Shown here piece after piece: positions 19,938-40,809 of a DNA stretch of 64,000 nucleotides (its first letter is position 1; the number at the start of each line of letters is the position of its first letter). Made by a program: the position numbers and the translations under genes. The notes beneath the pieces are model-generated. The model ran no database searches. It saw only the letters and a program-made list of their open reading frames with translations, and was not told the DNA's origin. This stretch comes from Eubacteriales bacterium (GTDB lineage: Bacteria > Bacillota > Clostridia > Oscillospirales > CAG-272). The stretch is taken from positions 648-64,647 of the forward strand of contig JAZSMJ010000034.1 in the NCBI GenBank assembly GCA_045535815.1. The letters are read 5' to 3'.

Positions 19938-22900
19938 ATGAAGAATTCAAAGAAATTATGGCTCGTGCTGTTTCTGACAGTATCAATGCTCGTGGTATCC
20001 GGTTGCTTGTTTGCAGTTTCTGCGGCGGACGGATACGAGATCACGGGATGGTATGGAACCGATAATATCGGCTTGGAAACAACGGTTGAGCTTGTTCACG
20101 ACGGTACGGTTGTTAAAACGACAACAATTCCGGCTTTTGAGGACAGCTACGGAGAGGGCGCAGTAAACTTTTGGGTTACAGACGTCCAGCCGGGTACATA
20201 CGATTTAGTTTTCAAAAAGGCAGGATGCCTTTCGTATACGGTAACGGGAATAACCGTTATCAATTCGGACGTTAATCTCAGTAACAGCTCGCTTACAAGT
20301 GGAGCGAACAAGCCTAATCTTATATCCGGTGATATAGATGAAAACGGCTTTGTTGACGGTATTGACGTTTCATATTTCATTTTCGATATGGGTAAGTCTG
20401 ATGCAGAGGCTATATATGCAACCTCCGATTTGAATGGAGACGGATACAGAGACGGTATAGACGTTGCAAAGCTTGCATTCAATATGCTTTCTCAGCCCGG
20501 ATCAGTTGAGTATGACAATCCGCATATAAACGTGGTCAAAAACATATTTAACTTCAATGAACTGAACCCGAACGGAAGCTTTTGGTGGGGCTTGGTTCAT
20601 CCTACGCTTTCCGAGGACGGATATAAGGGCAATTGCTATACAACGAACGTAGGCAACGATATTATCTGCGGTAACCTCGGTGCAGAGGGTACGTCCGTTG
20701 ATTTTTCCGCTCTTGCAGAGGACGGTAACTACCTTTCCTTCTACGTATATGTAGAATCCGATATAACCACAACGCTCAGAACTGACGTTGTAAGTATCAG
20801 AGATGTTTATTCTGATCCTTGTTCGCTGATATGGAATACAACCGGTCTTACCAAGGGCTGGAACCATATTATTCTTGATATTGACGACGTGATCAATCAC
20901 GGAGCAAACTTTGATATAGAGAACGTGCAGTTCGTTCATTTCTGGCTTGGTACCGATGAGACAAATTGGTGCGTTGACGAGCTCAGCATAATTGAGATCG
21001 AAGATTATAATCAGGATAGTGGATCAGGCGAAGCTCCCGGTGACGAACATGAGCATGACGCTGCAACTAACCTCACTATTACAGATGCAGTAGGTCCTAT
21101 TACATCTGGCGCTGATATCGTTATGTTTGCAGGTGCTATAGGTCCGTATGATCTTACAGATTATCAGGCAAATGGCGGAGTTCACATTGAACTTTACGTA
21201 TCCGATCCTGCTTTGATAGCAAACGGTCAGCTTGAGCTTTCATCCAACAGTGCTCCCGATACTAAGGAAATCAACTGGAAGTTTGACGGTAAGCAGTTCC
21301 AGCTTAAAGAGGGTTGGAACGTACTTGACCTCAAGTTCAGTGAAATTCCTGAAGTAGAGCAGTGGGAAGCAAGCTTTGGCGGTATGGATTGGTCCGCAGT
21401 AAACTATTGCAGAATATACCTCAATCCTACAAACACAGAAGACAAAACGGTAGAACTTAAGAACGTTTACATCTTCAAGGGTGAAGCAGGTACAGAACCC
21501 GATGCCCCTGAAGATCCCGAAGATCCTCCCGTAGGCGAAGGAACAAAATTTGTTCTTACCGCTTGCGATTCCATAGATGGCCTGTGGGGATCTCCTCTTG
21601 CATTGGATACTCAAAACAAGGTAGAGGGTACAGCTTCCGTTTCAGCTTCAAGTAATAGTGATAACGTTGCCATAATTTGCGAAGCGTTTGGCTCCGGTTA
21701 CGATCTCAGTGAATATCAAGACGATATGTTCGTACACTTAAGCGTTTATATTGACGATATATCAAAGATGATAACCTCGCCCGGACACATTCAGTTTGAA
21801 TTATACGGCGGAGATCCTGTCGATAACGGAAACGGTCAACAAGTAGCTCCTTGCTTCAGATGGAATATAGGCAGTATGCTTGATACCGGATGGAACGAGA
21901 TCGAGCTTAGCTTCTCCTCTGCTGTAATAGACGATGTTGGGGGAAGAGCTACTCCTTCTATAGCTACAATAAAATCACACAGACTGTTTGGATATTCAAC
22001 AGCTCCGACAACGATAGCTATAGATGATATTTACGTAACGACTTCTGCAACATTAGCAAAGAAGTATGCAAACAATCTCTTCAAGCTTGACAATATGTCA
22101 GCATACAGTGATTCCTCTTACTACAGCAAGGCGGCTTGGACGGTTTCAGGAGCGAGTGCTTCCTTCAGCTCAGAGGGCGCAAAGCTTCACGACACTGGCG
22201 CTGTAACGCTCAACGTTGCATCAGGTCAGACAGCTGTACTTTGTAAGACCTTCAGCAATACCGACCTTAGCAAGTATGCTGATGACGGATATCTCTATTT
22301 CTGGCTCTACGTTGATAAGGCTTCAAAGATCACCGGCGGTCAGCTTGAGCTGACAAGCTCAACTCAGCCCGACTGCTACGAGACGTCCTGGAACGTTACA
22401 TCGCTTAACCTCAAGGACGGTTGGAATGAGATCAAGCTCAGCCTTAAGGACTCCAATTTTGCAAGCAATGATGCGATATGGAGTATAATAAACTACGTAA
22501 GATTCTATTTCTCTGTTAATGCTCAGACTACCATCAAGGTAGAGGGTCTGTACTTCGGTACGGCAGATGATATGGAAACTGTACAGGCTAATAAGGTTGA
22601 GACATCAAGAGACGTTTTGGTTCTCGAAAACTGCGATACGCTTGACAATTGGGCAGTTGTAGGAACTTCGAGCTGTATATATGACACCAGCAGTGCCAAT
22701 GCAGAACACGAGGGCACAGGATATATAACCACAAGCCTTGATTCCGCAGGCGACGTTGTTCTTGCTAAAACCTATCAGGCAACAGATCATTGGATGAACG
22801 CCGTGAACGCTACGGTAAATACCTGGAGAATAGATCTTCGTGAATACAAGGACAGCAAGCTTAACGTTTCAATGTATATAAGCGATCCCTCCGTTGTAAT

Positions 22901-25208
22901 TGGCGGACAGATAGAGCTTACCTCAAGCGGACGTTCTGATGCTAACGAGATAAGCTGGGGCGAGCTTGGCGTTAATATTCCGCTTAAAGCAGGCTGGAAC
23001 CACCTTGAGCTTGATTTTGCCGATGCAAATATAATCGGCAATCCCGATTACTTTGAGATAAACTATTTCAGAGCATACCTTAATTGCTCCGGTGCCATTA
23101 CAATGGGACTTGACAATATTTATTTCGGAGATACTCAGGAGCTTTCATCTGTTATATTTACCGACGGCACCAACACACTCAGCAGAGCTTACTATAAAGA
23201 TGGAAGCCGCATCAGACTCAGCACCTCGTTTTACAATTACGATAAGGAATTCAACGGTTGGTCAGACGGAACGAATTTGTATAAACAGGGTGAATACGTG
23301 ACGGTAAACGGCGACGTTACGTATACGGCTGTGACAAACGACAGACCGGTTGACAACAACGTATACTATAGCTATGATATGGATGACGGAGGATATGATT
23401 CTCCGAATAGGGTAAAGCTTAACGGAGCAGTGAAGGGCGCATGCTCTGCAACAGGCTACAACGTTGCTTGGATAAAATCAGACGTGTTTGGCCGTGTTCT
23501 CGACCTCTCGACAAACGGATCATCTGTGCAGCCCTTTGAAACCGTAAGCGTTCCGATGAGCAGTGACGTTGCGGTTGAAACATGGTTTAACGCTCCCAAG
23601 AGGACTGCTACGAAGGGCAGCACCCTTCTTGACAGATACATTATGCAGTCCGACGGAATCGGAATTTGGCTCGATCCTGACGATTCATCCGTAAACGTCA
23701 GAGTCGGAAGCACGACTGTAACTGCAACCAAGACAGATATAGGCTTTGATGTTATTGATGAAAAATGGCACTATATCTGCGTTAAATACGATGCAAGCGA
23801 TGCAAGAGTTACCGTTTATATTGACGGCAATTCGGTAAAGAGCGCTACGGTTTCTGTATCCGGAGAGCTCGGCGCTGTAGTTATAGGTGCATATTCACAT
23901 AATTCTGCAGCTAACTGCAACTTTGACGGACACCTTGCAAGATTTGCAATAACAAACGGAAACGAATTCTACGGATACTCTTCCTCGCTTATAACCGAGG
24001 CCGAATATGATGCATCGACTTCGATCAAGCTTGAAAAGGGTATAGTAATAGATCGCCGTCAGTATTGGAACTTCAATCCCTTTACTTACGAGGGTGCAAC
24101 CATAGCTCCCAACGATATTCAGAATATAAAGAGCCTCGGCTTCGATCACGTTAAGCTTCTTCTTACGCCCAACTGGCTGATAGACGATAACGGCGAGCTT
24201 ATATACGAGAATATGACTTACATTGCTCCCATTCTTGACGAGGTTCAGAGACAGGGCTTCAAGTGTATCCTTTGCCTGCACCCCGAGGAGGGCTTCAAGG
24301 GTACGTATATGAGCGAGGCTGCTTTTTATAACGGCAAATTCTCTGATCTTCTCAACTTCTATCAGGATTTCACAGCCTACGTAGTTGAAAATTGGGGAAC
24401 AGACTTTATAGCAATTCAGCTTATGACTGAGCCCAATGCAAACAGCAGCAGCGTTTCTTGGGATTGGATAGCGGACAGACATTGGGTAGCGGCGCGTAAT
24501 GCATCTGAAGATATTATGCTTATCACAAGCTCCGATGATTTCGGTAACTTTGAGCATATCAAGCATATGTCTCCCGTATTCGACTACAACCTCGTATACT
24601 CCTTCACGACCTACGAGCCCTATACCGTTGGATTCAACAACTATAATCAGTACGACTTCTGGCCTTACGTAAAAGGCGTGCTCTATCCCGTTCCCGAAGG
24701 ACTTACTTCCTCTCAGATCAGCGCATTGATCGAAGAGAATATTACGATGGTTCCCAATGACCTTAAAGAATCGGCTAGATATACACTCAGAAGATACTAT
24801 ACCGGTGAAGCTGATATCTGGCGTATCAACTCTTACGATCAGGTATACAACCTCGATTGGCATATGGAAAGATGCGCGGCGCTTGATGCTTGGAATCAGG
24901 CAAACGGCGGCAACATTCATCTGATGGCAGTTGAGTTCGGATGCTCCGATACTCAGTACAACCAGAAGATATTCCACGCCGTTGCGGGAAGCGGTATATC
25001 CGATGAGACGCGTCTGACGCTTATAGATCATCAGACAAGCTCCTTTGAGGCTTACGGTATCGGTTGGTCGTACTGGTCATACAACGAGTACTTCCATATG
25101 CTTGATACCACCAAGCATCTCAATCTTGGTAACGTCTGCCTTACACCTATACAGTTTGCAGATGCAGTTGACCAGAAGCTTATAGACATACTTCTTAACA
25201 GAAACTGA
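19938..25208 (+). CDS. Giant secreted multimodular protein A (1756 aa): dockerin + 5 recurrent modules + InlB-type B-repeat + LamG + C-terminal divergent GH5/clan GH-A-like domain
   Basis: Signal peptide. Small beta-sandwich (VELVHDGTVVK...GTYDLVFKKAGCLSYTV). Two EF-hand-like dockerin repeats. Repeated modules share ...DLSxY..DGYLYFWLYVD...GGQLELTSS...W...GWNEI.L...INYxRFY. FNGWSDG B-repeat. LamG (DEKWHYICVKYDA..VTVYIDG...FDGHLARFAI). The barrel has HPEE, LMTEPN, FTTYEPY, AVEFGC and GIGWSYWSYNE. Confidence 0.85.
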   Translation: MKNSKKLWLVLFLTVSMLVVSGCLFAVSAADGYEITGWYGTDNIGLETTVELVHDGTVVKTTTIPAFEDSYGEGAVNFWVTDVQPGTYDLVFKKAGCLSYTVTGITVINSDVNLSNSSLTSGANKPNLISGDIDENGFVDGIDVSYFIFDMGKSDAEAIYATSDLNGDGYRDGIDVAKLAFNMLSQPGSVEYDNPHINVVKNIFNFNELNPNGSFWWGLVHPTLSEDGYKGNCYTTNVGNDIICGNLGAEGTSVDFSALAEDGNYLSFYVYVESDITTTLRTDVVSIRDVYSDPCSLIWNTTGLTKGWNHIILDIDDVINHGANFDIENVQFVHFWLGTDETNWCVDELSIIEIEDYNQDSGSGEAPGDEHEHDAATNLTITDAVGPITSGADIVMFAGAIGPYDLTDYQANGGVHIELYVSDPALIANGQLELSSNSAPDTKEINWKFDGKQFQLKEGWNVLDLKFSEIPEVEQWEASFGGMDWSAVNYCRIYLNPTNTEDKTVELKNVYIFKGEAGTEPDAPEDPEDPPVGEGTKFVLTACDSIDGLWGSPLALDTQNKVEGTASVSASSNSDNVAIICEAFGSGYDLSEYQDDMFVHLSVYIDDISKMITSPGHIQFELYGGDPVDNGNGQQVAPCFRWNIGSMLDTGWNEIELSFSSAVIDDVGGRATPSIATIKSHRLFGYSTAPTTIAIDDIYVTTSATLAKKYANNLFKLDNMSAYSDSSYYSKAAWTVSGASASFSSEGAKLHDTGAVTLNVASGQTAVLCKTFSNTDLSKYADDGYLYFWLYVDKASKITGGQLELTSSTQPDCYETSWNVTSLNLKDGWNEIKLSLKDSNFASNDAIWSIINYVRFYFSVNAQTTIKVEGLYFGTADDMETVQANKVETSRDVLVLENCDTLDNWAVVGTSSCIYDTSSANAEHEGTGYITTSLDSAGDVVLAKTYQATDHWMNAVNATVNTWRIDLREYKDSKLNVSMYISDPSVVIGGQIELTSSGRSDANEISWGELGVNIPLKAGWNHLELDFADANIIGNPDYFEINYFRAYLNCSGAITMGLDNIYFGDTQELSSVIFTDGTNTLSRAYYKDGSRIRLSTSFYNYDKEFNGWSDGTNLYKQGEYVTVNGDVTYTAVTNDRPVDNNVYYSYDMDDGGYDSPNRVKLNGAVKGACSATGYNVAWIKSDVFGRVLDLSTNGSSVQPFETVSVPMSSDVAVETWFNAPKRTATKGSTLLDRYIMQSDGIGIWLDPDDSSVNVRVGSTTVTATKTDIGFDVIDEKWHYICVKYDASDARVTVYIDGNSVKSATVSVSGELGAVVIGAYSHNSAANCNFDGHLARFAITNGNEFYGYSSSLITEAEYDASTSIKLEKGIVIDRRQYWNFNPFTYEGATIAPNDIQNIKSLGFDHVKLLLTPNWLIDDNGELIYENMTYIAPILDEVQRQGFKCILCLHPEEGFKGTYMSEAAFYNGKFSDLLNFYQDFTAYVVENWGTDFIAIQLMTEPNANSSSVSWDWIADRHWVAARNASEDIMLITSSDDFGNFEHIKHMSPVFDYNLVYSFTTYEPYTVGFNNYNQYDFWPYVKGVLYPVPEGLTSSQISALIEENITMVPNDLKESARYTLRRYYTGEADIWRINSYDQVYNLDWHMERCAALDAWNQANGGNIHLMAVEFGCSDTQYNQKIFHAVAGSGISDETRLTLIDHQTSSFEAYGIGWSYWSYNEYFHMLDTTKHLNLGNVCLTPIQFADAVDQKLIDILLNRN
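20325..20492 (+). other. Dockerin module of protein A
   Basis: SGDIDENGFVDGIDVSYF and SDLNGDGYRDGIDVAKLAF both fit the D-x-[DN]-x-[DN]-G-x-x-D-x-x-D calcium-loop pattern. Confidence 0.75.
23970..25205 (+). other. GH5/clan GH-A-like (beta/alpha)8 domain of protein A
   Basis: Order of motifs matches GH5: GFDHVKL, CLHPEE, QLMTEPN (putative acid/base Glu codon 24429-24431), YSFTTYEPY, LMAVEFGC (putative nucleophile Glu codon 24933-24935), GWSYWSY. Confidence 0.65.
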
Positions 25209-25269: not shown

Positions 25270-25298
25270 TTGACCGTTTTATGTAAAAATGATATTAT
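25270..25298 (+). promoter_or_regulatory. SigA-type promoter TTGACC-17-TATTAT
   Basis: TTGACC 25270-25275, TATTAT 25293-25298. The ORF-track TTG start coincides with the -35 box, so the real start is ATG 25327. Confidence 0.55.
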
Positions 25299-25326
25299 TA
25301 AAGTATCAAACGTTTTGGAGGCAAAT

Positions 25327-28300
25327 ATGAAAGCATCATCTGCAATAAAGCTGTTGTTTATTTTATGGATAGTATCGGCGATTATTATACTGACGGGATG
25401 CGAGGAAAGCGTTGCTCCCGAGCATGAAGAAGCTTTGAGCGAAGAGTCAGAGAGCGCTTCTGATCAGAATGAGGAGCCTGGTCTTATTACCGTAAGCTAT
25501 GATGCCGAGCTTGACGGTGCAGAAATACCTTCGGTCAGCGTAAGGGCAGGCGAGAAGATATTGCTTGCTGAGTGCGGCTATCAAAACGACGGCAGGATCT
25601 TTGCCGGCTGGAGCGACGGCGTGACGGTATATCCCGAGGGCAGTGAATTCACTGCACCCGAGGGCGATATAACGCTTCACGCAGTGTGGAAGGTGTATGC
25701 AGCTGCAATCAAAATATACGGCTTTGATGAAATGAACGCAAACGGAAGCTCGTGGTGGGGAACCGGGGCCGTGAACGTTTCGGTAGGCGGAGCATACGGC
25801 AGTTATTTCTCGACAGAGGCCGGTCAGAGCGTTATATGCGGAAATTTTGTTGCTGAAGGTCAGCCTCTTGATCTTTCAAGCCTTGAAGATGAAGAGAATA
25901 CTCTTTCTTTTTACGTATACATAGAAAATGATATAAATGCGGATATTACGGTGGATCTTGCAAGCGTAAGGGATACGCCGGACGCCGATCATTCTGCAAA
26001 ATGGATAGCTTCGGGACTCACGCAGGGCTGGAACCGGGTAGCGCTTAAGCTTAAGGATGCCATAGTCGGCGAAAGCTTCGATATATCAAAGGCGCAGTTC
26101 GTGCATTTTGAGATAAGCGACACCTCAAGCGTTTGGGGTGTAGACGAGCTTGCTGTATTTGGTTACGTTGAAGAAAAGCTACACGTAAACAATCTCTTTA
26201 TGCTTGACAGCATGTCGGGTAAGTACGGCACATCGATGTATAGCTCTGCTGCTTGGGGCTCGGACGGTGCAGAGGTCAGCTTCACAAACATAGGAGAAAG
26301 GCTTCACGGCTCAGGAACGGTAACGTTAAACGTAAGGCGTGGAGATACCGCTTGGCTTTATAAGCAGTTCAGCAATACCGATATCAGCAAGTACGCAGAC
26401 GACGGATATCTCTATTTCTGGATGTACGTTGATAACGCATCTAATCTTACGGGCGGTCAGATCGAGATAACAAGCTCAACTCAGCCCGACTGCTACGATA
26501 CCTCGTGGGACGTTTCCGCTCTCGGTATTAGAAACGGCTGGAATGAAATGAAGCTGAAGCTTGTCGGAGAAGCGGCAAATGAGGATGCGATCCTCAGCAT
26601 AATAAATTACGTAAGGTTTGTTTTCACTGCAAGTGAAGATACGGCTATAAAGATAGAGGGACTTTACTTCGGTACGGCAGACGATATCGCAAGTGTTACT
26701 ACCGTGCGCAAGGCAACCTCAAGAGAGGTCAGGGTTATCGAAAACTGCGACACCTCAGATAACTGGAGGGGTGACAAAAACATAACCTTCGTATCTGCCG
26801 ACAGCGAGGATATAGAGGGCAAGGGATATATTGCGATAAGCCGTGACGGTGCAGGCGACGTTGCTTTTTTCAAGACCTATCAGGGTATGAAGCATTGGAT
26901 GAACGCCGGGGGCGCAATGGTCAATACCTGGAGAATAGATCTTCGGGATTATATGGACAGCAAGCTAACGCTTTCACTTTACGTTTCCGATCCGGGTGTT
27001 ATCGCAGGAGGACAGATAGAATTCACCTCAAGCGAAGGCTCGGACGTTGACGAGATAAGCTGGGGAGAGCTTGGTGTGGACATTCCGCTTGAAAAGGGGT
27101 GGAACACGGTAGAGCTTGATTTTGCAGATGCAAATATGATCGGCACCCCCAATCTGTCTGAGATAAACTATTTCAGAGTATATCTTAACTGCACCGGTCC
27201 TGTAACAGTGGGACTTGACAACATATACCTCGGTGATAAGCAGGAGCTTTCCGATATCACCTTCACTGCAACCGAGATACTCGGGGAGGATCCTCAGACA
27301 ATAACGCAGACCTTCAAGTATAAGGACGGCGCAAGAATAAGGATGCTTGACATTCCCGATATTGAAACCAAGGAAATGACAAACTTCCTCGGCTGGTCGG
27401 ACGGAAGTAAGCTTTATATGCCGGGTGACTACGTAACGGTAAAGGGCGATGCGGTTTACACCGCACAGTATATAGAAAAGCCTTATGCAGAGGGCGTATA
27501 CTACGCATATGACTTATCGGACGGGGGCATATCGCAAGAAGGTATACAGACATCCTCGGCAGGTATTTCGGAGATCGAGTCTTCGGTTGCGGGTCTGCCC
27601 AATGCGATAGCTGAAAGTGCAGTGTGGATGAGCTCCAATACTTTCGGGCGCACACTTGATTTCTCGATAGCAGGAGCATACGTGGCTGCAAACGGTGTGA
27701 ATGTCAGCTTATCGTCCGACGTTTTGATCGAATGCTTTTTCAATACCCCGGACAGAGATCATTTAGAATCAAGATACATTATGGGCACCGGTGTTTTTGA
27801 TATATATTTAGGCGCCGATGCAAGAGTAAATATCAAGCTTGGAAATGCAAAGATAAGCTTTTCTCGAGATGCTATAGGTCATGATATAATTGACGAAAAG
27901 TGGCATCATCTGAAGGTCGTGTATAAAGCCCAAGAAGCTACCGTTACCGTGTTCGTTGACGGAAAATCCGTCGGTAGCAAAAAACTGCATTCAGACGCAG
28001 CCGATCTATCCTTTGATTCTGTTGTGATCGGAGCTCGGACGAAGGAGCCCAATCTAAATGACAGCTTTGACGGACGGTTAGCAAGATTTGCTATCACAAG
28101 CGGTGATGAATACTACGGCTACGAAAGCGTTGAGATAGCCGACGGTGAATACGACGTAGTAAGAGCTGTAGATCTCAAAAAAGGTATAGTAATGGACCGC
28201 CGTCAGTATTGGAACTATAATCCCTACGTTTACGAGGGCCAGAGCATAGCTCCGAATGATATCCAGAATATCAAGGATCTCGGATTTGACCACGTTAAGA

Positions 28301-29400
28301 TACTTCTTACGCCCAACTGGCTGATAGACGATAACGGCGAGCTTATATATGAGAATATGTCTTATATCGCTCCGCTTCTTGACGAGGTCAAGCGCCAGGG
28401 CTTTAAGTGTATTCTTTGTTTGCATCCAGAGGAGGGCTTCAAGGGTACGTATATGAGCACTAATGCTCTAAAGGACGGCACTTTTGGCGAGCTTCTCAAC
28501 TTCTATCAGGATATCTCCGCATACATAGTTGAGAATTGGGGCACCGACTTTATCGCACTTCAGCTTATGACCGAGCCTAACTCCAATTCCGGCACTGTAC
28601 CGTGGGACTGGATAGCTGACAGACAGTGGGGCGCTGCGAGAAACGCCGCTCCCGATCTTATGCTCATTACAAGCTCTGACGACTACGGCAACTTCGAAAG
28701 ATTAAAGGTTATGTCACCTGTATTCGACTATAACCTCGTTTATTCTTTCACCACATACGAGCCTTAGACGGTAGGTTTTAATAACTACACAAGAAGCTCC
28801 TTCTGGCCTTATCTCAAGGGCGTTATCTATCCCGTTCCTGAGGAAATGCCTCAGCGTGAGATCGTCAAGCTGATAGAAGAAAATATATCGGATGTTCCAA
28901 GAGACTTGAAGGAAGAGGCAAGGGGAACGCTTCGAAACTATTACCTTGGCAACATGGACAGCTGGAGAAGAAACTATTACGATTCACGTTATAATCTCGA
29001 TTGGCATATGCAAAGATGCGCTTCGATTCAGGAGTGGAATCAGGCAAACGGCGGAAATATTTATCTGATGGCGGTCGAGTTCGGATGCTCTGATACCAAA
29101 TATAATCAGGAAGTCCGCGAAAGAAAGGTGCGTGTTGAGGACTTCGGCATCAGCGACGAAACCAGACTTACCCTTATCGACCATCAGACGCAGTCGTTCG
29201 ATAAATACGGTATCGGCTGGTCGTATTGGTCGTATAACGAATATTTCCATATACTTGACACCTCCGTTCATGCATGGGGATACGACGGTGTGAAGGATAG
29301 GGATAAGAACACCTACGAAGGACTTTCGGGAGTGAGCATGACACCTGAGCAGTTCGCTAAATACGTAGACCGTGACCTTATAGACATTCTTATAAATTAA
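25327..29400 (+). pseudogene. Giant lipoprotein B, close paralog of A, interrupted by one in-frame TAG (28765-28767)
   Basis: ATG 25327 behind GGAGG. Lipobox IILTGC. ORFs 25270..28767 and 28846..29400 are in the same frame and separated only by TAG, where paralog A has Tyr (YEPY versus YEP*). The sequence downstream stays conserved (YPVPEE, LMAVEFGC, GIGWSYWSYNE). Confidence 0.7.
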
Positions 29401-29622: not shown

Positions 29623-32600
29623 ATGAATACGAATTTAGCAAAGAAATTACTGCTTATCCTTTGCATTTCGGTGTTGGTCTTCACGCTCTTTGTCGGATGT
29701 GATGGGGATACCGAGATTCCGGTAAGCGACGAGAGCGTTTCCGATAACGCAGAGGATACCACAGCAGATAATTCAGGAACTGAAGGATCCGAAAAGCCCA
29801 TAGAGGGTGCTTCGGTAATGATTACATATGACAGCGGACTCGAGGAAAGCTCGGGCAAGGCAGTTCTGCCTACAAGAGGAAAAGAAGGCGGCACGGTTGA
29901 GCTTTCAGACTGCTCATTCGTTAACTACGGCAAGATTTTTGCAGGCTGGAGCGACGGTACTAACGTTTATCCTGCAGGCTCGGAATTTGTCGTTCCGGTT
30001 GGCGGTGCTAATCTCACTGCTACCTGGAAGGACGGCGGTTCGGTTTTCGTTATAGATAACTGTGATTCCAATGACGGCTGGTGGGGCGTTTCTGAGGTTT
30101 ATAACGGAACCGAGGATGCAAAAGAGGGCAAGGGATACAATTATTCCACTCACCACGAAACCGTTATCTTCTGTAACGTTTTTGACGAGCCGATAGATCT
30201 GTCAAGCTTCAGAAGCACGGGCGTTATACATATGTGGCTTTGGATCGACAATATAGACAACGTAAGAACCAATTCGCCCGAGCTCGGACTTATCGAGCTG
30301 AATGACCCCGACGGCTTTGCATATTCAATGTCGGTAGCGACAGCAGGACTTCAGACGGGTTGGAATGAGGTTGCTCTTTCGTTCAAGGATGCGTTCAGAA
30401 AAGACGGCGATCTTTCAAACGTAGTTTCGTTCAGACTTTACCAGTACGTTACTGCCGAAACCACAATGAGAATGGACGGCTTTGAGGCGTGGATGCCTGA
30501 GGTTGCATGTACCGTTGAGTTTGGCGGAGAGTACGATTACGTTCTCGGAATGAAGGACGAAATGGTAATGGAGAACGTAAAGGAAACGGGTGACATAACC
30601 CTTCCCGAATGCGTTCTTGTAAGAAGAGGTCACACCTTCGCAGGCTGGAGTGACGGTACGAATACCTATGCGGCAGGCGATAAATATACAGTTCCCGAGG
30701 GCGGTATTAATTTCACAGCCGTATGGACGGCAAACGAAAAGAAAACTATAACGTACGACCTTGGCTCTGACAGCGAAAAATACGAAAGCTTCGAGGGCGA
30801 GTTCGTAACTCTTCCCACTCCTGCACCTAAGGACGGTAAGGTATTTGCAGGCTGGAGCCTTGATGACGTGGTTTACGGCGGCGGTACCTACTACATTATG
30901 GGTGATAAGGATATTACCTTTAAGGCTGAATGGAGAGATATAGATAACGTATCCCTTCTTTCCGATGCTATAGGAGCATGGGAGCTGACTGAAGGTGAAG
31001 GCGAGGCTATACCTTCAGCTATAGGCGGTAAGTCCCTCAAGTCCAAGTGGGCTGTATGGCTCAACTCCGAGACCTTCGGTCGTACTGCCGACTTCTCAAC
31101 AGAGGGCTCATACCTTCTCGCTGAGGATTCGGGCATAACCCTCAAGGATAGCTTTGCTATCTCCGCATGGGTTAAGGCACCGATACGTGAAAACACAAAC
31201 AGAGTTATCGTATCGTCTGACAGTGCGATCGAGACCGAATACGTAAATGAAAGCATATTTGCTGATGCCGATGCCACAAGAGGCTGGTGGAGCAATCACG
31301 ATATAACGGTAGGCGAGGGCGAAGCGGTTCAGGGTAAGGGTTACCTTCAGACAACCTCTAACGACGTTGCTATCTTCTGTGCATCCTTGCGCAACGTTGA
31401 CGCTACCGAATATATGGAAGGCGGAGCTATCAAGCTTTATCTTTACGTTGAAGATGACTCCAAGCTCGATATTGCATCGGGTGGAGAAATAGAGCTTTCG
31501 AGCGACGGCGGTCAGACCGCAACTGCATGGAGACTTCCCGCGCTTGTCGAGGGCTGGAATGAAATTATCATTCCTACAGAAGGACACAGCAGAAACGAAG
31601 CGAATATGTCCAAGATCAACTATATGAGAGTCTTCTATTACGTTTCCGCTGAGACAACACTGGGAATAGACGGCGTTTCCTTCCTCGGTACCAGCAAATC
31701 CGGCGGAGGTAACAGCTGGAAGATGTATATTGACGGCGAAAGCGGAGCTCTTGCGTTTGAGGCTGACGGTCTTGAAGGCGAAGTTCCGAGCAATGTTAAT
31801 ATAGTTGACGGCAAGTGGCATCACGTTATGACAACTCTCGATGGTGGCACTCTTACTTACTGGGTAGACGGCAAGTCTGTATCTACCGTATCGGTAAGCG
31901 GTGAGATATCGGTTGAAACGGACGATATCTACATAGGAAATATTGCATCGGGCACAGAGTGGTTTGACGGCTCTATGGCTCAAGTGCGTATATATGACAG
32001 CGCAAAGACTCCCGCAGAGGTTACTGCAACTACTATAGAGCCTTCCGATAACGAGGCTAAGGACGTTCGTCTTAAGATGAACAAGGGTACGCTTCTTGAG
32101 CGTCTCGGCTTCAGAACTGTCGGACGTATCGGCTATGAAGTATATCAGGAAGATCTCGAGTACCAGACTGTTGACGTTACGAATATAGACGCAGCAAAGA
32201 AGTTTGGCTTTGATTACGTTAAGCTTACGGTAACTCCCAACCATCTTATAGGAGATGACGGTGCGCTTATCGTTGAAAATATGACCTACGTTACACAGGA
32301 CGTAAATCTCATACTCGAGAGAGGACTTCCCGTTCTCTTCTGTCTGCATCCCGAGCCCGATTACAAGCCCACCTACCTTGGAAATCTCAACAACTTTGAG
32401 ATAATGATCAAGTGGTACGGCGAGTTTGCGGCGTATATCGGACAGCAGTGGTCTCCCGATGAGGTATCCATCCAGCTTATGACAGAGCCTCACGATAACA
32501 ACAGCTCTGTATCATGGACGTGGATGAGCGACAGAATGTGGGCTGCAGTCAGAAACGAGCTTCCCGATCACACCATAATCACAAGCTCCGATGCTGCAGG

Positions 32601-33300
32601 TAACATTGAAAGACTCAAGCTCATGTCTCCTGCAACTGACGATAACCTCGTATATTCATTTACGACCTACGAGCCTTACATGGTAGGCTTCGGTACTGCA
32701 AGAGACGGTATGAGCGGAAACGTTTCCTTCTTCAATTACCTTAAGGGCGTTCCGTATCCCGTACCCGAAGGACTTACTACCGAAGAAATAAATGCTATGG
32801 TAGAGGATATAACCTCTCTCGTTCCGTCCGAATATAAGAACGGTGCGGTAAATACCGTAAGAGCATACCTGAGAGGTCAGTTTGATGCAGATCCTCACTA
32901 CAAGAACCACTACGATATAGGCTATACGGCTGAGTGGAATATGACAAGAATGAACTCCCTCACCGATTGGAGCAATAAGTACGGCGGAAACATCCATATG
33001 ATGTGCGTTGAGTTCGGTTGTATGGATGACGTTACTGCTAAGAAGATGTTCGGTGCTGCAGATGGCTCAGGTGCGGCTGAGGATGCAAGAATCAATCTTG
33101 TTCACGATCTCAGAGAAGCGTTTGAGGCAAACGGTATCGGCTGGTCTTACTGGCTGTTCAACGGTGTATTTACAGTATTCAATCCCGAAACGAGAATTAT
33201 GGACGGTATTACCGACGATGCTTACATAGCTAAGCATTACGACCCCGAGCTTATTGAATACGCTCTCGGTCTTACCCCCGACTATTCTTGGGAAAAGTAA
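29623..33300 (+). CDS. Giant lipoprotein C (1225 aa): B-repeats + recurrent modules + split LamG + C-terminal GH5/clan GH-A-like domain
   Basis: Lipobox LFVGC. Three B-repeat units (IFAGWSDGTNVY, TFAGWSDGTNTY, VFAGWSLDDVVY). LamG halves flank an inserted module. The barrel has CLHPEPD, LMTEPHDN (Glu codon 32485-32487), FTTYEPY, MMCVEFGC and GIGWSYWLFNG. Confidence 0.85.
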   Translation: MNTNLAKKLLLILCISVLVFTLFVGCDGDTEIPVSDESVSDNAEDTTADNSGTEGSEKPIEGASVMITYDSGLEESSGKAVLPTRGKEGGTVELSDCSFVNYGKIFAGWSDGTNVYPAGSEFVVPVGGANLTATWKDGGSVFVIDNCDSNDGWWGVSEVYNGTEDAKEGKGYNYSTHHETVIFCNVFDEPIDLSSFRSTGVIHMWLWIDNIDNVRTNSPELGLIELNDPDGFAYSMSVATAGLQTGWNEVALSFKDAFRKDGDLSNVVSFRLYQYVTAETTMRMDGFEAWMPEVACTVEFGGEYDYVLGMKDEMVMENVKETGDITLPECVLVRRGHTFAGWSDGTNTYAAGDKYTVPEGGINFTAVWTANEKKTITYDLGSDSEKYESFEGEFVTLPTPAPKDGKVFAGWSLDDVVYGGGTYYIMGDKDITFKAEWRDIDNVSLLSDAIGAWELTEGEGEAIPSAIGGKSLKSKWAVWLNSETFGRTADFSTEGSYLLAEDSGITLKDSFAISAWVKAPIRENTNRVIVSSDSAIETEYVNESIFADADATRGWWSNHDITVGEGEAVQGKGYLQTTSNDVAIFCASLRNVDATEYMEGGAIKLYLYVEDDSKLDIASGGEIELSSDGGQTATAWRLPALVEGWNEIIIPTEGHSRNEANMSKINYMRVFYYVSAETTLGIDGVSFLGTSKSGGGNSWKMYIDGESGALAFEADGLEGEVPSNVNIVDGKWHHVMTTLDGGTLTYWVDGKSVSTVSVSGEISVETDDIYIGNIASGTEWFDGSMAQVRIYDSAKTPAEVTATTIEPSDNEAKDVRLKMNKGTLLERLGFRTVGRIGYEVYQEDLEYQTVDVTNIDAAKKFGFDYVKLTVTPNHLIGDDGALIVENMTYVTQDVNLILERGLPVLFCLHPEPDYKPTYLGNLNNFEIMIKWYGEFAAYIGQQWSPDEVSIQLMTEPHDNNSSVSWTWMSDRMWAAVRNELPDHTIITSSDAAGNIERLKLMSPATDDNLVYSFTTYEPYMVGFGTARDGMSGNVSFFNYLKGVPYPVPEGLTTEEINAMVEDITSLVPSEYKNGAVNTVRAYLRGQFDADPHYKNHYDIGYTAEWNMTRMNSLTDWSNKYGGNIHMMCVEFGCMDDVTAKKMFGAADGSGAAEDARINLVHDLREAFEANGIGWSYWLFNGVFTVFNPETRIMDGITDDAYIAKHYDPELIEYALGLTPDYSWEK
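32065..33297 (+). other. GH5/clan GH-A-like domain of protein C
   Basis: Same motif order as in A: FGFDYVKL, CLHPE, MTEPH, TYEPY, VEFGC, GWSYW. Confidence 0.6.
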
Positions 33301-33354: not shown

Positions 33355-34227
33355 CTATTCATCAGAGGAGCTGTTTCTGTAATGCGTCGGGGAGCAACCG
33401 GTATAGTTCTTAAAAAATCTGCTGAAGGAATATACGTCTGAAAAGCCCAGCTTTTCGGAAAGTGCGGTTATAGAAAGCGAGGTATTCCTTAAGGCGCTCT
33501 TTATATATTCAATGCGTTTGCTCCTATAATATGATACGACGTTTTGATTGTAGATAGATTTGAATCTTCTCATTAAGGTATATTTATTGACGTAAAATTG
33601 ATTGGACAGGCTTTCGAGAGTAATAAGCGACAGATAGTTTCCGTCTATATATTCCTTGACCGCGATCGTTAGATCATGTGTCGCTTCAGCTTTTTCGCTT
33701 TTATTTATGTCAAACTGCGTCAGAACAACGTTTATAAGCTCCAGCATTTTGATTTTGCAGGTAAGCTCGTAATTATATCCCTTCTTTTGATATAGATCGA
33801 TTATTTCAAAGAACAGTCTTTGAAAGGTGTTGATATCATATGGAGTGAACACGGTTGGTATCGGGATATCTTTTAAGGTATCGTGCTGTATCAGACTGAG
33901 CTCTTCCGTTGACATTTCGCTTTTGCGCTTGAACGATACGTATCTTTTCTCACTGTCGTCGCTGTATGAGATATCAAAATGGATATGAGGCTGAATGAAA
34001 TTGCAGTTATCCACACATTCAAATCTGTGGGTAATACCGGGACGAAGAAAAACGATATTGTTTTTCTTGCAAAGGTGGCACTTACCGTCCACGTAGATAT
34101 TGCATTTGCCACCGGTTACAAAAATCATTTCATAGTCGAATATCACTCTGTCATTTATTGTAAACGGTGCAGTAAGGGTTGAAAGCATTGCAACTCTTAT
34201 ATGCGGAGAAAAAGCGTTTTTGTTCAT
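33355..34227 (-). CDS. AraC-family transcriptional regulator (cupin-like N-terminal sensor + 2 HTH)
   Basis: Start moved to ATG 34227 (MNKNAFS) behind AAGGAAGG. C-terminal LSITALSEKLGFSDVYSFSRFFKNYTGCSPTHYR. Confidence 0.9.
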   Translation of the reverse strand: MNKNAFSPHIRVAMLSTLTAPFTINDRVIFDYEMIFVTGGKCNIYVDGKCHLCKKNNIVFLRPGITHRFECVDNCNFIQPHIHFDISYSDDSEKRYVSFKRKSEMSTEELSLIQHDTLKDIPIPTVFTPYDINTFQRLFFEIIDLYQKKGYNYELTCKIKMLELINVVLTQFDINKSEKAEATHDLTIAVKEYIDGNYLSLITLESLSNQFYVNKYTLMRRFKSIYNQNVVSYYRSKRIEYIKSALRNTSLSITALSEKLGFSDVYSFSRFFKNYTGCSPTHYRNSSSDE

Positions 34228-34363
34228 GTGATCGCCTTCCTTTTCGGTGAAATGGTCAATAAATGACAAATTTTTTGATTGCTTTTGCTATTTTAAATGT
34301 TTGGCAATGCCGTCATAATTATAGCATAAATACGGATATTAATCAAGGAGTGTATAGAATATT

Positions 34364-35413
34364 ATGGATTTAGCTAAAATACAAAAATGGGAATCAAGGT
34401 CAATTTCTGCTGAAAACCTCAAGGGCGAAAAGGGAAAGGGAGGAATGGCTGATCACGGAACGGGTGAGAGCTGTGCTCGTGATCTCGGACGTGGATGGAA
34501 GGTATCCCCTTCTGTAGTTATTGCACCTGGCGAAATATTTGAGATGGCAAGGATCGATCAGGCAGGTATTATAAAGCATATATGGATAACGGACAGCTGT
34601 CCGCTCAACCGAAGGCTTATTATAAGAATGTATTGGGATGGAAGCGATACTCCATCGGTTGAAGCTCCACTCGGAGATTTTTTTGCCAGCGCAGAGCATC
34701 AGAAGTATACACAGCTTACTTCAATACCGGTCTGCGTAAATCCTAAGAGAGCCTTTAACTGTTATTGGGATATGCCCTTTTACAAGGGATGCAGAATAAC
34801 TATAGAAAATATTCACAGCGAAAAGGTTACGGTATATTATCAGGTGGATTACGTCGTGGGAGATGTTCCCGAGGGACTTGGATATTTCCATGCTCAGTTC
34901 AGAAGAGTGAATCCGCTTCCTTATAAAGAATGCTATACCATTCTCGATAACGTAGAGGGTAACGGTCATTACGTTGGCACCTATCTTTTCTGGGGGGTAA
35001 ACAACACCGGCTGGTGGGGAGAAGGTGAGATTAAGTTCTTCCTTGACGGCGATAAGGACTATCCCACTATATGCGGCACAGGCACCGAGGACTATTTTTG
35101 CGGATCGTGGAATTTTGATATTGGAGGAGGATATCAGGAATTCTGTACGCCCTATTCAGGACTTTCAAAGGTGATAAGACCGGACGGACTCTACAGCTCA
35201 CAGCAAAGATTCTCTTTGTACAGATGGCATATTACAGATCCTGTTTTCTTCAAAAAGGATATAAGGGTAACTATTCAGGCTCTGGGTTGGAGAAGCGAGG
35301 GGCGTTATCTGCCGTTGCAGGATGATATCTCCTCGGTTGCGTTCTGGTATCAGGACAGTATATGCAAGACCTTTCCCAAGCTTCCCGACGCTGACGGACT
35401 TGAGTTAATATGA
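34364..35413 (+). CDS. DUF2961 / glycoside hydrolase family 172-like protein
   Basis: WWGEGEIKFFLDGDKDYPTICGTGTEDYFCGSWNF and GIIKHIWIT match the DUF2961 hallmark as I remember it. No signal peptide. Confidence 0.75.
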   Translation: MDLAKIQKWESRSISAENLKGEKGKGGMADHGTGESCARDLGRGWKVSPSVVIAPGEIFEMARIDQAGIIKHIWITDSCPLNRRLIIRMYWDGSDTPSVEAPLGDFFASAEHQKYTQLTSIPVCVNPKRAFNCYWDMPFYKGCRITIENIHSEKVTVYYQVDYVVGDVPEGLGYFHAQFRRVNPLPYKECYTILDNVEGNGHYVGTYLFWGVNNTGWWGEGEIKFFLDGDKDYPTICGTGTEDYFCGSWNFDIGGGYQEFCTPYSGLSKVIRPDGLYSSQQRFSLYRWHITDPVFFKKDIRVTIQALGWRSEGRYLPLQDDISSVAFWYQDSICKTFPKLPDADGLELI

Positions 35414-35527: not shown

Positions 35528-35562
35528 TTATTAAACTTTATCTTTTTTGTTTGGAGTATATT

Positions 35563-36831
35563 ATGAAAAAGGTCAGTGCTATTATAGTAGGAGCAGGAGC
35601 AAGAGGTATAGGTGCTTATGCGCCGTATGCCAAGATCCATCCCGAAAAGCTTGCAATAGTCGGCGTTGCAGATCCCGATGAAAACAAACGGAAGATACTC
35701 CGTGATACCTACGGCTTTAGCGAGGATATGTGCTTTGAGTCGTATGAGGAGCTTTTTAAGCGTGAAAGGCTTGCGGATGCAGTCATTATCTGCACCGGAG
35801 ATGCGATGCATTACGATCCGTCAAGACTTGCGGTCGAGCGTGGTTATCACGTTCTGCTTGAAAAGCCCATCTCTCCCGATCCTCTTGAGGTATACCGTAT
35901 AGGTAAGGTTGCAGAGAAGAGCGATAAGGTTTTCCTTATCTGCCACGTTTTAAGATATACGGCCTTTTTCCGGAAGATAAAAGAACTGATCGACGAGGGC
36001 AGAGTCGGCAGAATAATGTCGGTCATGCATAACGAGAACGTTCAGTTTCAGCATCAGGCGCACAGCTTTGTGCGTGGCAATTGGAGGAGTAGCAAGACCT
36101 CGTCTCCGATGATACTTGCAAAGTCCTGTCACGATATGGATATCCTATTATATTTGATAGGAAAGAATTGTAAAAAGGTTTCATCCTTCGGCTCGCTCGG
36201 ATATTTCAAAAAGGAAAATGCCCCTAAGGGTGCTCCCGACAGATGTACAGACGGATGTCCGTATGAAAACACCTGTCCGTACAATCCCCTCCGTATGTAT
36301 ACGGAGGGCGAGCTGAGGGGCTGGTGCGGTATCTTCGGATGCTCACCCGACGATCCTGCTTCCATGATAGAGGTGCTTAAGGTAAACGACTACGGCAGGT
36401 GCGTTTTCAGATGCGATAACGACGTTGTCGATCACCAGGTGGTCAGCATGGAATTTGAGGACGGTATCACCTGCGTGTTCACAATGAGCGCATTTACGCA
36501 GACCGGCTCGAGAACTATAAAGATAATGGGCACTCACGGTGAGATAGGTGCCAATATGTCCGAAAACGTGATAGTCGTCAAGGATTTTGCCAGTGGCAGC
36601 GTTGACACCATAAAGGTGCGTGAATCGGTATGGGGACACGGCGGCGGCGATCTGGGAATAACCGAATACTTCGTTAACGCCGTGAACGGCGGTGATCGCT
36701 CGATGACCTCTGCGCAGATCTCGGTGCAGTCGCATATGATGGCGTTTGCCGCAGAAAAATCGAGAGTTGAGGGCTGCACGGTGGATCTTGATAGGTTTAC
36801 AAAAGAGATCGCGGCACTCACCGAAAAATAA
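35563..36831 (+). CDS. Gfo/Idh/MocA-family NAD(P)-dependent oxidoreductase
   Basis: ATG 35563 behind GGAG. Rossmann IVGAGARGIGAY, EKP motif (VLLEKPIS), large C-terminal alpha/beta domain. Confidence 0.85.
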   Translation: MKKVSAIIVGAGARGIGAYAPYAKIHPEKLAIVGVADPDENKRKILRDTYGFSEDMCFESYEELFKRERLADAVIICTGDAMHYDPSRLAVERGYHVLLEKPISPDPLEVYRIGKVAEKSDKVFLICHVLRYTAFFRKIKELIDEGRVGRIMSVMHNENVQFQHQAHSFVRGNWRSSKTSSPMILAKSCHDMDILLYLIGKNCKKVSSFGSLGYFKKENAPKGAPDRCTDGCPYENTCPYNPLRMYTEGELRGWCGIFGCSPDDPASMIEVLKVNDYGRCVFRCDNDVVDHQVVSMEFEDGITCVFTMSAFTQTGSRTIKIMGTHGEIGANMSENVIVVKDFASGSVDTIKVRESVWGHGGGDLGITEYFVNAVNGGDRSMTSAQISVQSHMMAFAAEKSRVEGCTVDLDRFTKEIAALTEK

Positions 36832-36912
36832 GGATATATTTAATTTTTACATAAATATATTTAATGAGGAAACAACATTTGCCGTAAAATGATACGGCGG
36901 GAAGGAATTCAA

Positions 36913-39900
36913 ATGAAAAAAATAATTCTTTTATTTGCAGCTTTACTCTGCTTCTCATTTGTCTTTATCGGATGTGACGATGCTACCGTAGATCCTGTAG
37001 ACGGAACTGAAAGCAACGCAGAAGAAACCGCAGATAACGTTGAACAGGAAAAGGGGGAAGAGGTTGTGACTAACGCAAATCTTCTTGAATCCTGGGATCT
37101 TTCCGATGGCGGAAGAACGGGTAACGTTTCGAGCTCTATAGGAAAAACCTCAGGTACAACACGTTGGGGAACATGGCTCAGAACCGAAACCTTCGGATTC
37201 ACGCTTGACTTCTCTACAGAGGGCTCCTACTTCAAGGCTGAAAACGTTTCTCTTGAAGAGATGAGCGACAGCTTTACGATATCCTCATGGCTGAAGGCTC
37301 CGCCCCGTGAAGACAATACCAGAGTTATCGTTTCAAAGGGCACATACGATTCAAGTGCTCCTGTTGAATATTCGGATTTCAAGGTGCTTCATTCTTGTAA
37401 CGTAAAGGACGGCTGGAAGAGACTTAATAACCAGGTAGCCGATTACGAGGACGAGAGCTGCAGCGACGGACACTGTCTTGAGCTGACCGGAGATCAGAAT
37501 GCTCCGCTTATATTTGCTCTTCAGTTCAAAAATCAGAACTTTTCTTCATACGATACGGACGATGCATACATAAGATTCAAGCTTTACGTTGACGATGCAT
37601 CAAAGCTCATAAGCGGTGAGCTTGAGCTCGGCTCGCAGAACGCCTCCGATTCTTACGAAACTGCATGGTCTCTTGATTCAAGTCTGTTCAAGGATGGCTG
37701 GAACGAGATAGTTCTTCCCCTCAGCGGCGCTCATAAGAGCGGTGACGGAGGATGCGATCTTGGAAGAATCAACTTTACAAGACTTTATATGTACGTAACC
37801 GGGCCGGCTACCATAAGATTGGACGAGATAGCCTTCTGCCGTGTTGCGGAAAGCGATAAGGCTCTCGACTTCGCTCTCTATCTTGAGGGCGGAAGCGGCA
37901 ATCTCGGATTTATGGCTCCCGGTCTTTCGGGACTTGAAAATACCGACGTTTCTCTTATCGACGGTAAGTGGCATCACGTTGCCGTAACTCTCAACAACGG
38001 AAGCTTTACGTACTACGTTGACGGTGAGGCTGTAAAGACTCTTGCAGTCACAGGCTCGCTTACAAACGATTACAGCGACATCTACGCAGGCTCATACCCC
38101 GATGCTACGGGTGGCTTTGACGGATCAATGGCACAGCTTAAGCTGTACAGCGGAGTTGCAAGTGCAAAGAATATGGCGTCAGCCGTAACCGTTGCCGAAT
38201 CCGATAACACCTTTGATGCCACTACGGTTGAGCTTATGAAGGGTATATGGATAGAGCCCTCCAATATGCAGGACCTCAAGAACGTCAAGGATATGGGCTT
38301 TGGCCACGTAAGACACGGCTTTGACCCCGACAGACGCGGAGAGATATACATAAACGAGGACGGCTCCCTCAATCTTGAAGCTATGCAGACGGTTGAAAAG
38401 TGGATCAACAACTGCGTAAGAGCAGGCCTTCCGATCATCATAGGACCTCACCCCGTACATGAGTGGAAGGAAAAATGGATAACAGATCTTGAAAAGTTCG
38501 AGCTTGTGTGCGAATGGTACGGCGATCTTGCTGCCTATATAGCAGAAAGATGGACGCCTCAGCAGGTAGCACTTACCATAATGAGTGAGCCTGCAGGCGG
38601 TAACCCTTCCGTATCATGGACATGGGTCAGCGACAGAGTATATACTGCTATGAGAAATGCGGCACCTGACCACACCATACTTATGGGCGGTGACGCATCA
38701 GGTAACATCGAAAAGATGAAGGCGATGAGCCCCGTTACCGACGATAACGTCAAGTATTCATTCTCGACATACGAGCCTTATACCATAGGCTTCGGTACTG
38801 CATCATCCGGTATGGCAGGACAGGTGACCTTCTGGAACTACCTCGGTGACGTTCCGTATCCCGTACCCGAAGGACTTACCGATGAAGAGATAGAAGCGAT
38901 AGTTGAAGACGTTACGTCTATCGAGCCTGCCAACTTCAAGGCTCAGGCACAGGACGTAGTCCGCAAGTATCTTAAGGGTATCTCCGACGCAGGTGACCAC
39001 TACGTCAACAACTACGGCGGAGTATACAACAAGGATTGGCATATCCGCAGAGCTGAAAGCGTAAAGGCATGGCAGGACAAGTACGGCGGAGTAAACGTAC
39101 ACGTATCCGAGGTGGGTACGATAGACGCAGTTCAGTCTATCCAGTACTTCCAGGCAGTAGAGGGCTCGGGCGCTTCTATGGAAACGCACTACAACCATCT
39201 GCGTGACCTTGTAACTACATTTATAGATTACGGCTTCGGCTACGATTACTGTGCATACAATAACCCCGAGCTTACCGTATTCGATACTCGTCTGAGAAGC
39301 GGACAGTACGCTTACGGCAACGGACTTTCCTCAGACCTTGCACTTTCATGGTACGACTACGATAAGCTTGATATACTTCAGGTAACACCCGTAAGAGAAT
39401 ATCATCCTACCGCAGATCTTAGCAACGCACTTCTTGCAATCAAGCTTGACGACGAGGAGGGTGCAGAGACTGCAGCGTCCGAGCTTCTTCTCGGAGTTAC
39501 TGCCGAATATGGCAAGATAAAGACGGTAGCTGACGATAAATTCGGAAGAGCCGCACAGCTTACCGGTGTAGCGGGCGAAAATATAATATCCTCAAACGCA
39601 TCCTTCGATATGCCCGATGGTATGGCAATATCCGCATGGATAAAGGCCGATAACGCTGCAAGCACAAGCAAGCAGGCTATCGTTACTATGGCAGAGAATA
39701 TGCAGAAGGATGAGACCGGAGCAGTAGGTAAGCTGATGATATCCGATTGCGAGACCAACTCCGGCTGGTGGGGTGTTTCCGATATCGGAACTATGGAACG
39801 TCAGCAGAGCGGTGGCGAATTCGCTATCGTAACTGAAGCGAAGCAGACCGTAATATTCTGTAACGTATTCCATTCGCTTGATATTACAAGCTTCCTCGAT

Positions 39901-40569: not shown

Positions 40570-40809
40570 CAATACGGCTGAAAATACGACTTTTTTTGTA
40601 CGTAAATGTTAACAAAGTGCAAATTTTGTTCACATTCAAGACGCTGCTTTTCCTTAATATTACAGTTATATTACAAAAGCGCCTAAGGTGTTGAAAAAAA
40701 AGACGGATTGTAATATGATATAAGCACAGGTACTCTCCCGAAATTTCTCAAGTCGGGGTAAAGAGAAACCTGTAAAAATTATAATTTTTTTCAAAAAGGA
40801 GAAAAAACC

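Follow-up and report, generated by a model that had tools for sequence, protein, structure and literature searches.

A stretch of 64,000 nucleotides from a Eubacteriales bacterium (Bacillota; Clostridia; Oscillospirales; CAG-272; assembly GCA_045535815.1, contig JAZSMJ010000034.1, positions 648 to 64,647 of the forward strand), hereafter the window, carries four genes, A to D, coding for large multi-module proteins in which one domain is a variant of the catalytic barrel of glycoside hydrolase family 5 (GH5). The Asn preceding the acid/base Glu and the His of strand beta6 are deemed near-universal in GH5 and clan GH-A, and their mutation kills canonical enzymes. Both are replaced in A to D, whose domains belong to an ancient and so far uncharacterised branch of GH5 in which three 'invariant' active-site residues have been swapped and both catalytic Glu residues kept.

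Each of the four proteins begins with a lipoprotein-type signal peptide, with a lipobox ending in Gly-Cys or similar, and a Laminin_G_3 module was recognised by Pfam in all four. Listeria-Bacteroides repeats (Flg_new) were also found in C, with a sub-threshold trace in A, and in D the GH5 module is followed by further modules and a second laminin G (LamG) module. Beyond these LamG and Flg_new matches, the stretches 19938-24000, 25270-28100, 29623-32000, 36889-38150 and 39500-40521 were blank in Pfam; they resemble repeated modules of about 150 amino acids with a terminal G-W-N motif.

Active-site motifs and placement in GH5

The codon of the acid/base Glu is GAG at 24429-24431 in A, 28573-28575 in B, 32485-32487 in C and 38587-38589 in D, in the contexts QLMTEPN, QLMTEPN, QLMTEPH and TIMSEPA, respectively. 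The initial annotation had proposed that Asn-Glu-Pro gives way to Thr-Glu-Pro or Ser-Glu-Pro in all four copies, and this is borne out, Thr153 of the A domain aligning with Asn139 of CelC, an endoglucanase of Clostridium thermocellum. Its second proposal, the change of His-x-Tyr to T-T-Y or S-T-Y, holds as well: F[T/S]TYEP is found at 24603-24620 (A), 28747-28764 (B), 32659-32676 (C) and 38761-38778 (D), reading FTTYEPY in A and C and FSTYEPY in D, with the final Tyr codon of B replaced by TAG, and Thr213 falls on CelC His198. A third change had been overlooked, namely that only D has Arg at the position of the beta2 Arg of GH5 (CelC Arg46), the other three copies having Lys (DHVK). The eight signature residues of GH5 are, in CelC numbering, Arg46, His90, Asn139, Glu140, His198, Tyr200, Glu280 and Trp313. 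A, B and C retain five of the eight (the changes being Arg to Lys, Asn to Thr and His198 to Thr), and D has the Arg together with Ser, Ser and Tyr for Asn, His and Trp.

Both phmmer and the profile of the clade described below pair Thr153 with Asn139, Glu154 with Glu140, Thr213 with His198, Tyr215 with Tyr200, Glu322 with Glu280 and Trp366 with Trp313 (Table 1). An AlphaFold2 model of the A domain, built from a 47-sequence alignment (predicted local distance difference test, pLDDT, 92.3; predicted template modelling score, pTM, 0.91), places the mapped residues at the C-terminal ends of beta4, beta6, beta7 and beta8. The GH5 order of motifs reported initially stands for A to C, which have the beta8 Trp and E-F-G at the nucleophile (VEFG), but not entirely for D, in which beta8 carries Tyr and the nucleophile motif is SEVG. 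As for the insertion of about 80-90 residues described between beta6 and the nucleophile, it is real by comparison with minimal GH5 enzymes, but it is no peculiarity of these proteins, being common to CelC-type GH5s: 80 residues separate the Tyr from the nucleophile in CelC, against 107 in A, the P-Y-P motif of the beta6-beta7 subdomain is kept in the clade and in sister GH5s alike, and the clade profile aligns straight through the subdomain.

Table 1. Genes of the window and active-site residues of the A domain (residues numbered from the start of the domain)
Feature	Positions	Strand	Description
Gene A	19938..25208	+	1756 aa; lipoprotein-type signal peptide (..VSGC); dockerin-like stretch (weak), several unassigned beta-sandwich-like modules, Flg_new-like repeat, Laminin_G_3, C-terminal GH5-variant domain
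GH5-variant domain of A	23970..25205	+	domain residues 1-412, (beta/alpha)8 barrel; phmmer to CelC 4e-6
Arg29 of D28-R29 pair, end of beta1	24054..24056	+	conserved in clade only; aligns with CelC Gln16
Lys62, beta2	24153..24155	+	in place of GH5 Arg (CelC Arg46)
His104 (H-P), after beta3	24279..24281	+	retained; equivalent to CelC His90
Thr153-Glu154, beta4	24426..24431	+	Thr on CelC Asn139; Glu154 putative acid/base
Thr213-Thr214-Tyr215, beta6	24606..24614	+	Thr213 on CelC His198; equivalent of Tyr200 retained
Glu322, end of beta7 (VEFG)	24933..24935	+	putative nucleophile
Trp366, beta8	25065..25067	+	equivalent to CelC Trp313; followed by clade-specific Tyr368 and Asn372-Glu373
Gene B	25270..29400	+	annotated open reading frame 25270-28767; same frame open to 29400 past in-frame TAG
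Gene C	29623..33300	+	1225 aa lipoprotein; GH5-variant domain 32038-33297 (LMTEPH, FTTYEPY, VEFG)
AraC-family regulator	33355..34269	-	between C and D; divergent to the DUF2961/oxidoreductase pair
DUF2961 protein (PF11175)	34364..35413	+	E 1.5e-92
Gfo/Idh/MocA-type oxidoreductase	35551..36831	+	between C and D
Gene D	36889..40521	+	1210 aa lipoprotein; GH5-variant domain mid-protein, 38176-39480

The domain is a GH5 (beta/alpha)8 barrel and not, as had been considered at first, the founder of a distinct family, because Pfam matches (C, D and nearly all homologues), a full-length profile match to CelC and the fold all agree. Pfam PF00150 (Cellulase) scores 47 bits in C and 69 bits in D against a cut-off of 23.5, and nearly all homologues in a large protein collection have a precomputed match to it; A and B gave no match to this family even at an expectation value (E) of 10. 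The clade profile aligns with CelC over residues 11-331, subdomain included, at E 9.6e-33, followed by TmCel5A, FnCel5A, CcsZ and MtGlu5. A Foldseek search of the A-domain model against the PDB returned CelC first (1cen, E 1.4e-16), with CcsZ, TmCel5A and FnCel5A also top-ranked, and the top 50 matches are all GH5 enzymes or annotated endoglucanases of GH5 fold. Two other searches yielded little: an NCBIfam scan of the domain gave only a partial match of 13.7 bits to endoglycoceramidase, and a word-indexed search for homologues, queried with only the D domain, returned a single protein.

Conservation of the replacements across a clade

A profile of the four domains was searched against 1.84 billion representative proteins, yielding 1629 matches at E <= 0.001 and 77 at E <= 1e-30. 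The best 150 of the 1629 matches were realigned, and all residue counts come from that alignment. Above about 135 bits every one of these matches has [T/S]-E-P plus F-[T/S]-x-Y and nearly always H-V-K, and below this score there is an abrupt change to N-E-P, F-H-x-Y and H-V-R. The first group, hereafter the clade, accounts for about 75 of these 150, each of them representing a cluster at 50% identity. At position 153 (CelC Asn139) its representatives have Thr (69) or Ser (6) in 75 of 75, so that the Asn expected of clan GH-A right before the acid/base Glu is found in none, against Asn in 68 of 68 sister GH5s. Position 213 (CelC His198) is Thr in 58 and Ser in 6 of 68 clade sequences and His in 67 of 68 sisters; position 62 (CelC Arg46) is Lys in 66 (93%) and Arg in 5 of 71, against Arg in all 68 sisters. 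Both Glu residues (positions 154 and 322) are present in 100% of either group.

These substitutions are accompanied by others. Two acidic second-shell residues are altered in the clade (Asp to Cys at 102 and Glu to Gln at 150), and residues conserved in the clade only are Asp28-Arg29 after beta1 (on CelC Ser15-Gln16), Asp189 after beta5, Tyr368 at beta8, Asn372-Glu373 after it, and Thr376. In the AlphaFold2 model the clade-specific residues all lie on the catalytic face of the barrel, where at least 10 positions show a fixed difference between the clade and its sister group. In the clade alignment Asn372, after beta8, is the only clade-specific conserved Asn, and there is no clade-specific conserved His. 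Arg29 is paired with Lys62 in 60 clade sequences, and the lineage of D has P or T at position 29 with R62.

In a maximum-likelihood tree the 60 tips bearing Thr or Ser form one clade with zero exceptions inside, which adjoins canonical GH5 and whose ancestral state is K-T-T. The replacements were inherited from the ancestor of the clade and are due neither to chance nor to convergence. The four paralogs of the window are therefore not the independent witnesses they had been taken for, and it is the long persistence of the pattern that argues for function, not the agreement among them. The underlying claim, that this is a conserved and selected state rather than decay, is nevertheless sustained by the Thr or Ser in 75 of 75 representatives, the invariance of both Glu, the ratio of non-synonymous to synonymous substitution rates given below and the retention of the state in every copy of the genome. 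By its tree position and the make-up of its members, the clade does not fit GH5_37, the CelC subfamily: it is monophyletic and apart from all N-E-P sequences in the tree, its members have signal peptides and many modules, and it shares neither the canonical active site nor the intracellular single-domain organisation of that subfamily. Clade members occur in Lachnospiraceae, Oscillospiraceae, Ruminococcaceae, Selenomonadaceae, Cohnella, Planctomycetota, Hydrogenedentota, Verrucomicrobiota, Armatimonadota and Chitinophagaceae, and in most of them Laminin_G_3 precedes the GH5 module.

Of the paralogs B is nearest to A, their domains being 73% identical, and it has an in-frame TAG at 28765-28767, at the Tyr of FTTYEPY and ahead of the nucleophile; downstream of it the frame is still open to 29400, with VEFG and IGWSYW kept. 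Either B acquired a nonsense mutation very recently or the TAG is an error of assembly. The dN/dS ratio between A and B is 0.13, with dS saturated, so that B was under purifying selection until recently. The protein collection also contains B truncated at the TAG (P0024). D, a derived subtype, branches within the clade together with P0008, the sequence closest to it: in this lineage the beta2 Arg is back, the Arg at the end of beta1 is gone, the Asn and His positions read Ser-Ser and the beta8 Trp is Tyr, the beta8 sequence of D being FGYDYCAY, in which Tyr and Cys replace the two beta8 Trp. Finally, the beta3 His is missing as well from a sub-branch that comprises P0026, P0027 and four to five of the copies in this genome. 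These copies (contigs C29, C9 and C10) read SLGCRG or SLGNRD against CLHPEE and keep T-E-P and both Glu; near-identical fragments of them lie at contig ends, where repeats probably broke the assembly.

Copy number and gene neighbourhoods

The domain was matched 19-20 times in the assembly (2.25 Mb in 87 contigs, 96.7% complete), for the most part in lipoproteins of roughly 1200 amino acids and often in tandem pairs or triplets (contigs C9, C10, C17, C29, C45, C49, C53, C77 and C79). T/S-E-P is found in all 19-20 copies, and neither catalytic Glu is lost from any copy that includes the region in question, a few copies being cut by contig ends and B by its stop. Not one copy turned up in 40 relatives, which cover 24 other genera of this family and 16 further families within the order, and 1-3 copies were counted in each of 16 other carrier genomes. 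Given the 19-20 copies here, their absence from these relatives and the low numbers elsewhere, the gene was probably acquired horizontally by this organism and then massively expanded. The clade is the dominant secreted enzyme family of this genome, and the presence of 19-20 diversified copies in 2.25 Mb suggests that it is central to the organism's way of life. Sporulation genes identify the host as a spore-forming Firmicute.

Between C and D lie the regulator and the DUF2961/oxidoreductase pair of Table 1; we take PF11175 (DUF2961) to be CAZy family GH172. Two SLH-domain surface proteins are encoded downstream of D. Long antisense open reading frames overlap sense genes on the reverse strand at 23895-25031, 31108-32493 and 40666-43668 (378, 461 and 1000 amino acids), and are most likely shadow frames due to codon bias.

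The neighbourhoods of 52 homologous loci, several of them from the same organisms, and of 7 other sites in this genome were surveyed. ABC sugar transporters were found beside clade members in 8 loci, sulfatases in 5 loci of non-Firmicute metagenome-assembled genomes (Hydrogenedentota, Planctomycetota/Phycisphaerales and one labelled Nitrospiraceae), an IU_nuc_hydro-like gene in 5 Firmicute loci, GH2 in 4 and GH95 in 3-4. An FGGY kinase with an AP_endonuc_2 TIM-barrel protein occurs in 2-3 loci (in Cohnella and in one Hydrogenedentota genome). L-fucose isomerase was seen in 3 loci, of which two are apparently the same contig; on an Oscillospiraceae contig it is accompanied by a PfkB kinase and a class II aldolase. 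Gfo/Idh/MocA oxidoreductases lie near clade members in about four other genomes, and DUF2961 was not seen beside members from other genomes in the surveyed loci. The recurrence of GH95 and of isomerase, kinase and aldolase genes gives weak hints of fucose-like or rare-sugar-bearing glycans. A cultured isolate, Cohnella rhizosphaerae DSM 28161, encodes a 1691-amino acid member with 52% identity to the A domain (NZ_JAPDIA010000009.1:191822-209024); AP_endonuc_2 and FGGY kinase genes lie upstream of it, and a short second GH5 with an internal TGA downstream.

Proposed activity and comparison with known systems

The Asn that precedes the acid/base Glu in clan GH-A hydrogen-bonds the 2-OH of the -1 sugar, and its loss may reasonably be supposed to bring a non-standard specificity or mechanism. 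We consider that A to D are probably active retaining glycosidases with a remodelled -1 subsite, drawn from an old and coherent GH5 clade. They would be surface-anchored, as their lipoprotein signals suggest, multi-module enzymes whose catalytic module belongs to a GH5 clade nearest to the CelC type (GH5_37 and GH5_25), and are predicted to act by the usual double displacement with Glu154 as acid/base and Glu322 as nucleophile. The -1 subsite would no longer read the 2-OH of the sugar through Asn, and the acid/base would be tuned by Thr instead of His. The covariation of Arg29 and Lys62 leads us to infer that a guanidinium is supplied from beta1 rather than beta2, Arg29 probably taking over the job of the lost beta2 Arg, a shift that would have been reversed in the lineage of D. 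The cleaved substrate is therefore probably other than plain beta-1,4-glucan or mannan; candidates are sugars that lack the group at C2, carry a substituent on it or have it placed differently, and glycans that are decorated or charged.

Several observations weigh against this proposal. Canonical GH5 activity dies without the Asn or the His, so that a non-hydrolytic or inactive role is conceivable; Asn372 or Arg29 may restore the contacts lost at the -1 subsite; and no solved structure or characterised member of the clade was found with the clade profile or by Foldseek against the PDB. Most copies in this genome sit amid housekeeping genes, and the naming of a substrate from the neighbourhoods was rejected, the recurrences over the 52 loci being only loose and heterogeneous. 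The clade may also already stand in CAZy as a numbered subfamily without known activity.

A more far-reaching version of the proposal, which we hold only tentatively and think rather doubtful as a whole, is that the clade gave up 2-OH recognition altogether and cleaves glycosides whose -1 sugar is substituted at C2 or has a lacking or inverted 2-OH, with a transition state stabilised unlike that of characterised clan GH-A enzymes. The organism would then be a specialist on one class of decorated glycans to which no enzyme family has been assigned, marked by the approximately 19-fold expansion.

Among the alternatives, the one that survives best is that of an ordinary beta-1,4-glucanase, lichenase or mannanase in which the replacements are neutral, the contacts being restored by Arg29, Asn372 and the Thr hydroxyls. 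The closest solved relatives are indeed endoglucanases, GH5_36 stays a mannanase/glucanase despite the change of its His to Arg (PMC3835425), and Arg29 and Lys62 covary as though the Arg had shifted from beta2 to beta1. We nevertheless regard it as unlikely, as at least 10 positions of the active face are fixed differently from the sister group, mutation of the Asn to Ala abolishes the activity of a related enzyme (PMC3835425), and no genes for cellulose or mannan utilisation recur beside members in the surveyed loci.

Less probable still is a non-hydrolytic domain, either a carbohydrate-binding or adhesin module or a transglycosylase, whose expansion would serve surface display. Such a role would suit the lack of three residues regarded as essential in canonical GH5 (PMC3835425) and the 19-20 surface lipoproteins with many binding-type modules that lie mostly outside sugar-utilisation loci, but the retention across phyla of both Glu, of the Tyr supporting the nucleophile and of the O3-binding His is hard to explain without catalysis, and members elsewhere adjoin sugar transporters, other glycoside hydrolases and sugar-catabolic genes. 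A separate clan GH-A family that merely resembles GH5, an idea invited by the silence of Pfam Cellulase on A and B at E 10 and by the three differing signature residues out of eight, is very improbable, as the Pfam GH5 threshold is exceeded by C, by D and by almost every homologue, the match of the clade profile to CelC (E 1e-32) runs the whole length of that enzyme, subdomain included, and the clade adjoins canonical GH5 in the tree.

Whichever enzymatic reading proves right, the clade has long done without both the Asn and the His in several phyla while keeping its catalytic pair, so that these residues are either dispensable if compensated or were given up for a new specificity. Its members are annotated everywhere as 'cellulase', which is probably misleading, and the characterisation of a single one would reannotate a clade that numbers about 75 clusters at 50% identity in the best 150 matches.

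Of the systems compared, the xanthanase RuGH5a of Ruminococcaceae UCG13, considered by description only, is likewise a multi-module secreted GH5 of gut Clostridia with Listeria-Bacteroides repeats (bioRxiv 10.1101/2021.06.02.446819). It falls outside all GH5 subfamilies, and its activity depends on the modules appended to it (bioRxiv 10.1101/2021.06.02.446819). Its GH5 module is N-terminal, and its locus carries GH88, GH94, GH38 and PL8, none of which was seen near clade members in the surveyed loci; a link to it, at most a lead, was considered and not adopted, since its type of locus was not seen near members and the comparison was by description. The GH5_25 enzymes Thermotoga maritima Cel5A and Fervidobacterium nodosum Cel5A, together with Clostridioides difficile CcsZ, belong to the same branch of GH5 as the clade and are the next-best matches by structure and profile, but all have the canonical N-E-P and H-x-Y.

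CelC (PDB 1CEC, 1CEN and 1CEO) is the best match both by profile and by fold, with the same barrel and the same beta6-beta7 subdomain with P-Y-P; it is classified in GH5_37 and TmCel5A in GH5_25 (PMC3526467). The acid/base Glu, the nucleophile Glu, Tyr200, Trp313 and His90, an O3 ligand in CelC (PMC3835425), are common to CelC and the clade. In contrast, CelC has Arg46, Asn139 and His198 where the clade has Lys, Thr/Ser and Thr/Ser, and Gln16 where the clade has Arg, and identity is only about 18%. Moreover, the CelC subfamily is intracellular (PMC3526467), whereas A to D are large surface lipoproteins with LamG and other modules.

The literature offered a precedent for the replacement of the His only, and none was found for the joint loss of Asn and His; searches on a Thr in place of the conserved Asn and on GH5 combined with Laminin_G_3 likewise brought up nothing relevant. 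In CelC, His198 forms a hydrogen bond of 2.7 Å with the acid/base Glu140 (PMC3835425). The precedent is GH5_36, represented by Caldanaerobius polysaccharolyticus Man5B (CpMan5B), a whole subfamily in which the 'strictly conserved' beta6 His is replaced by Arg and the function is kept (PMC3835425). There, however, the acid/base is still hydrogen-bonded, by the Arg, and the preceding Asn is retained and essential, the N136A mutation of CpMan5B abolishing activity (PMC3835425), whereas in the clade described here the His has become Thr or Ser and the Asn is lost as well.

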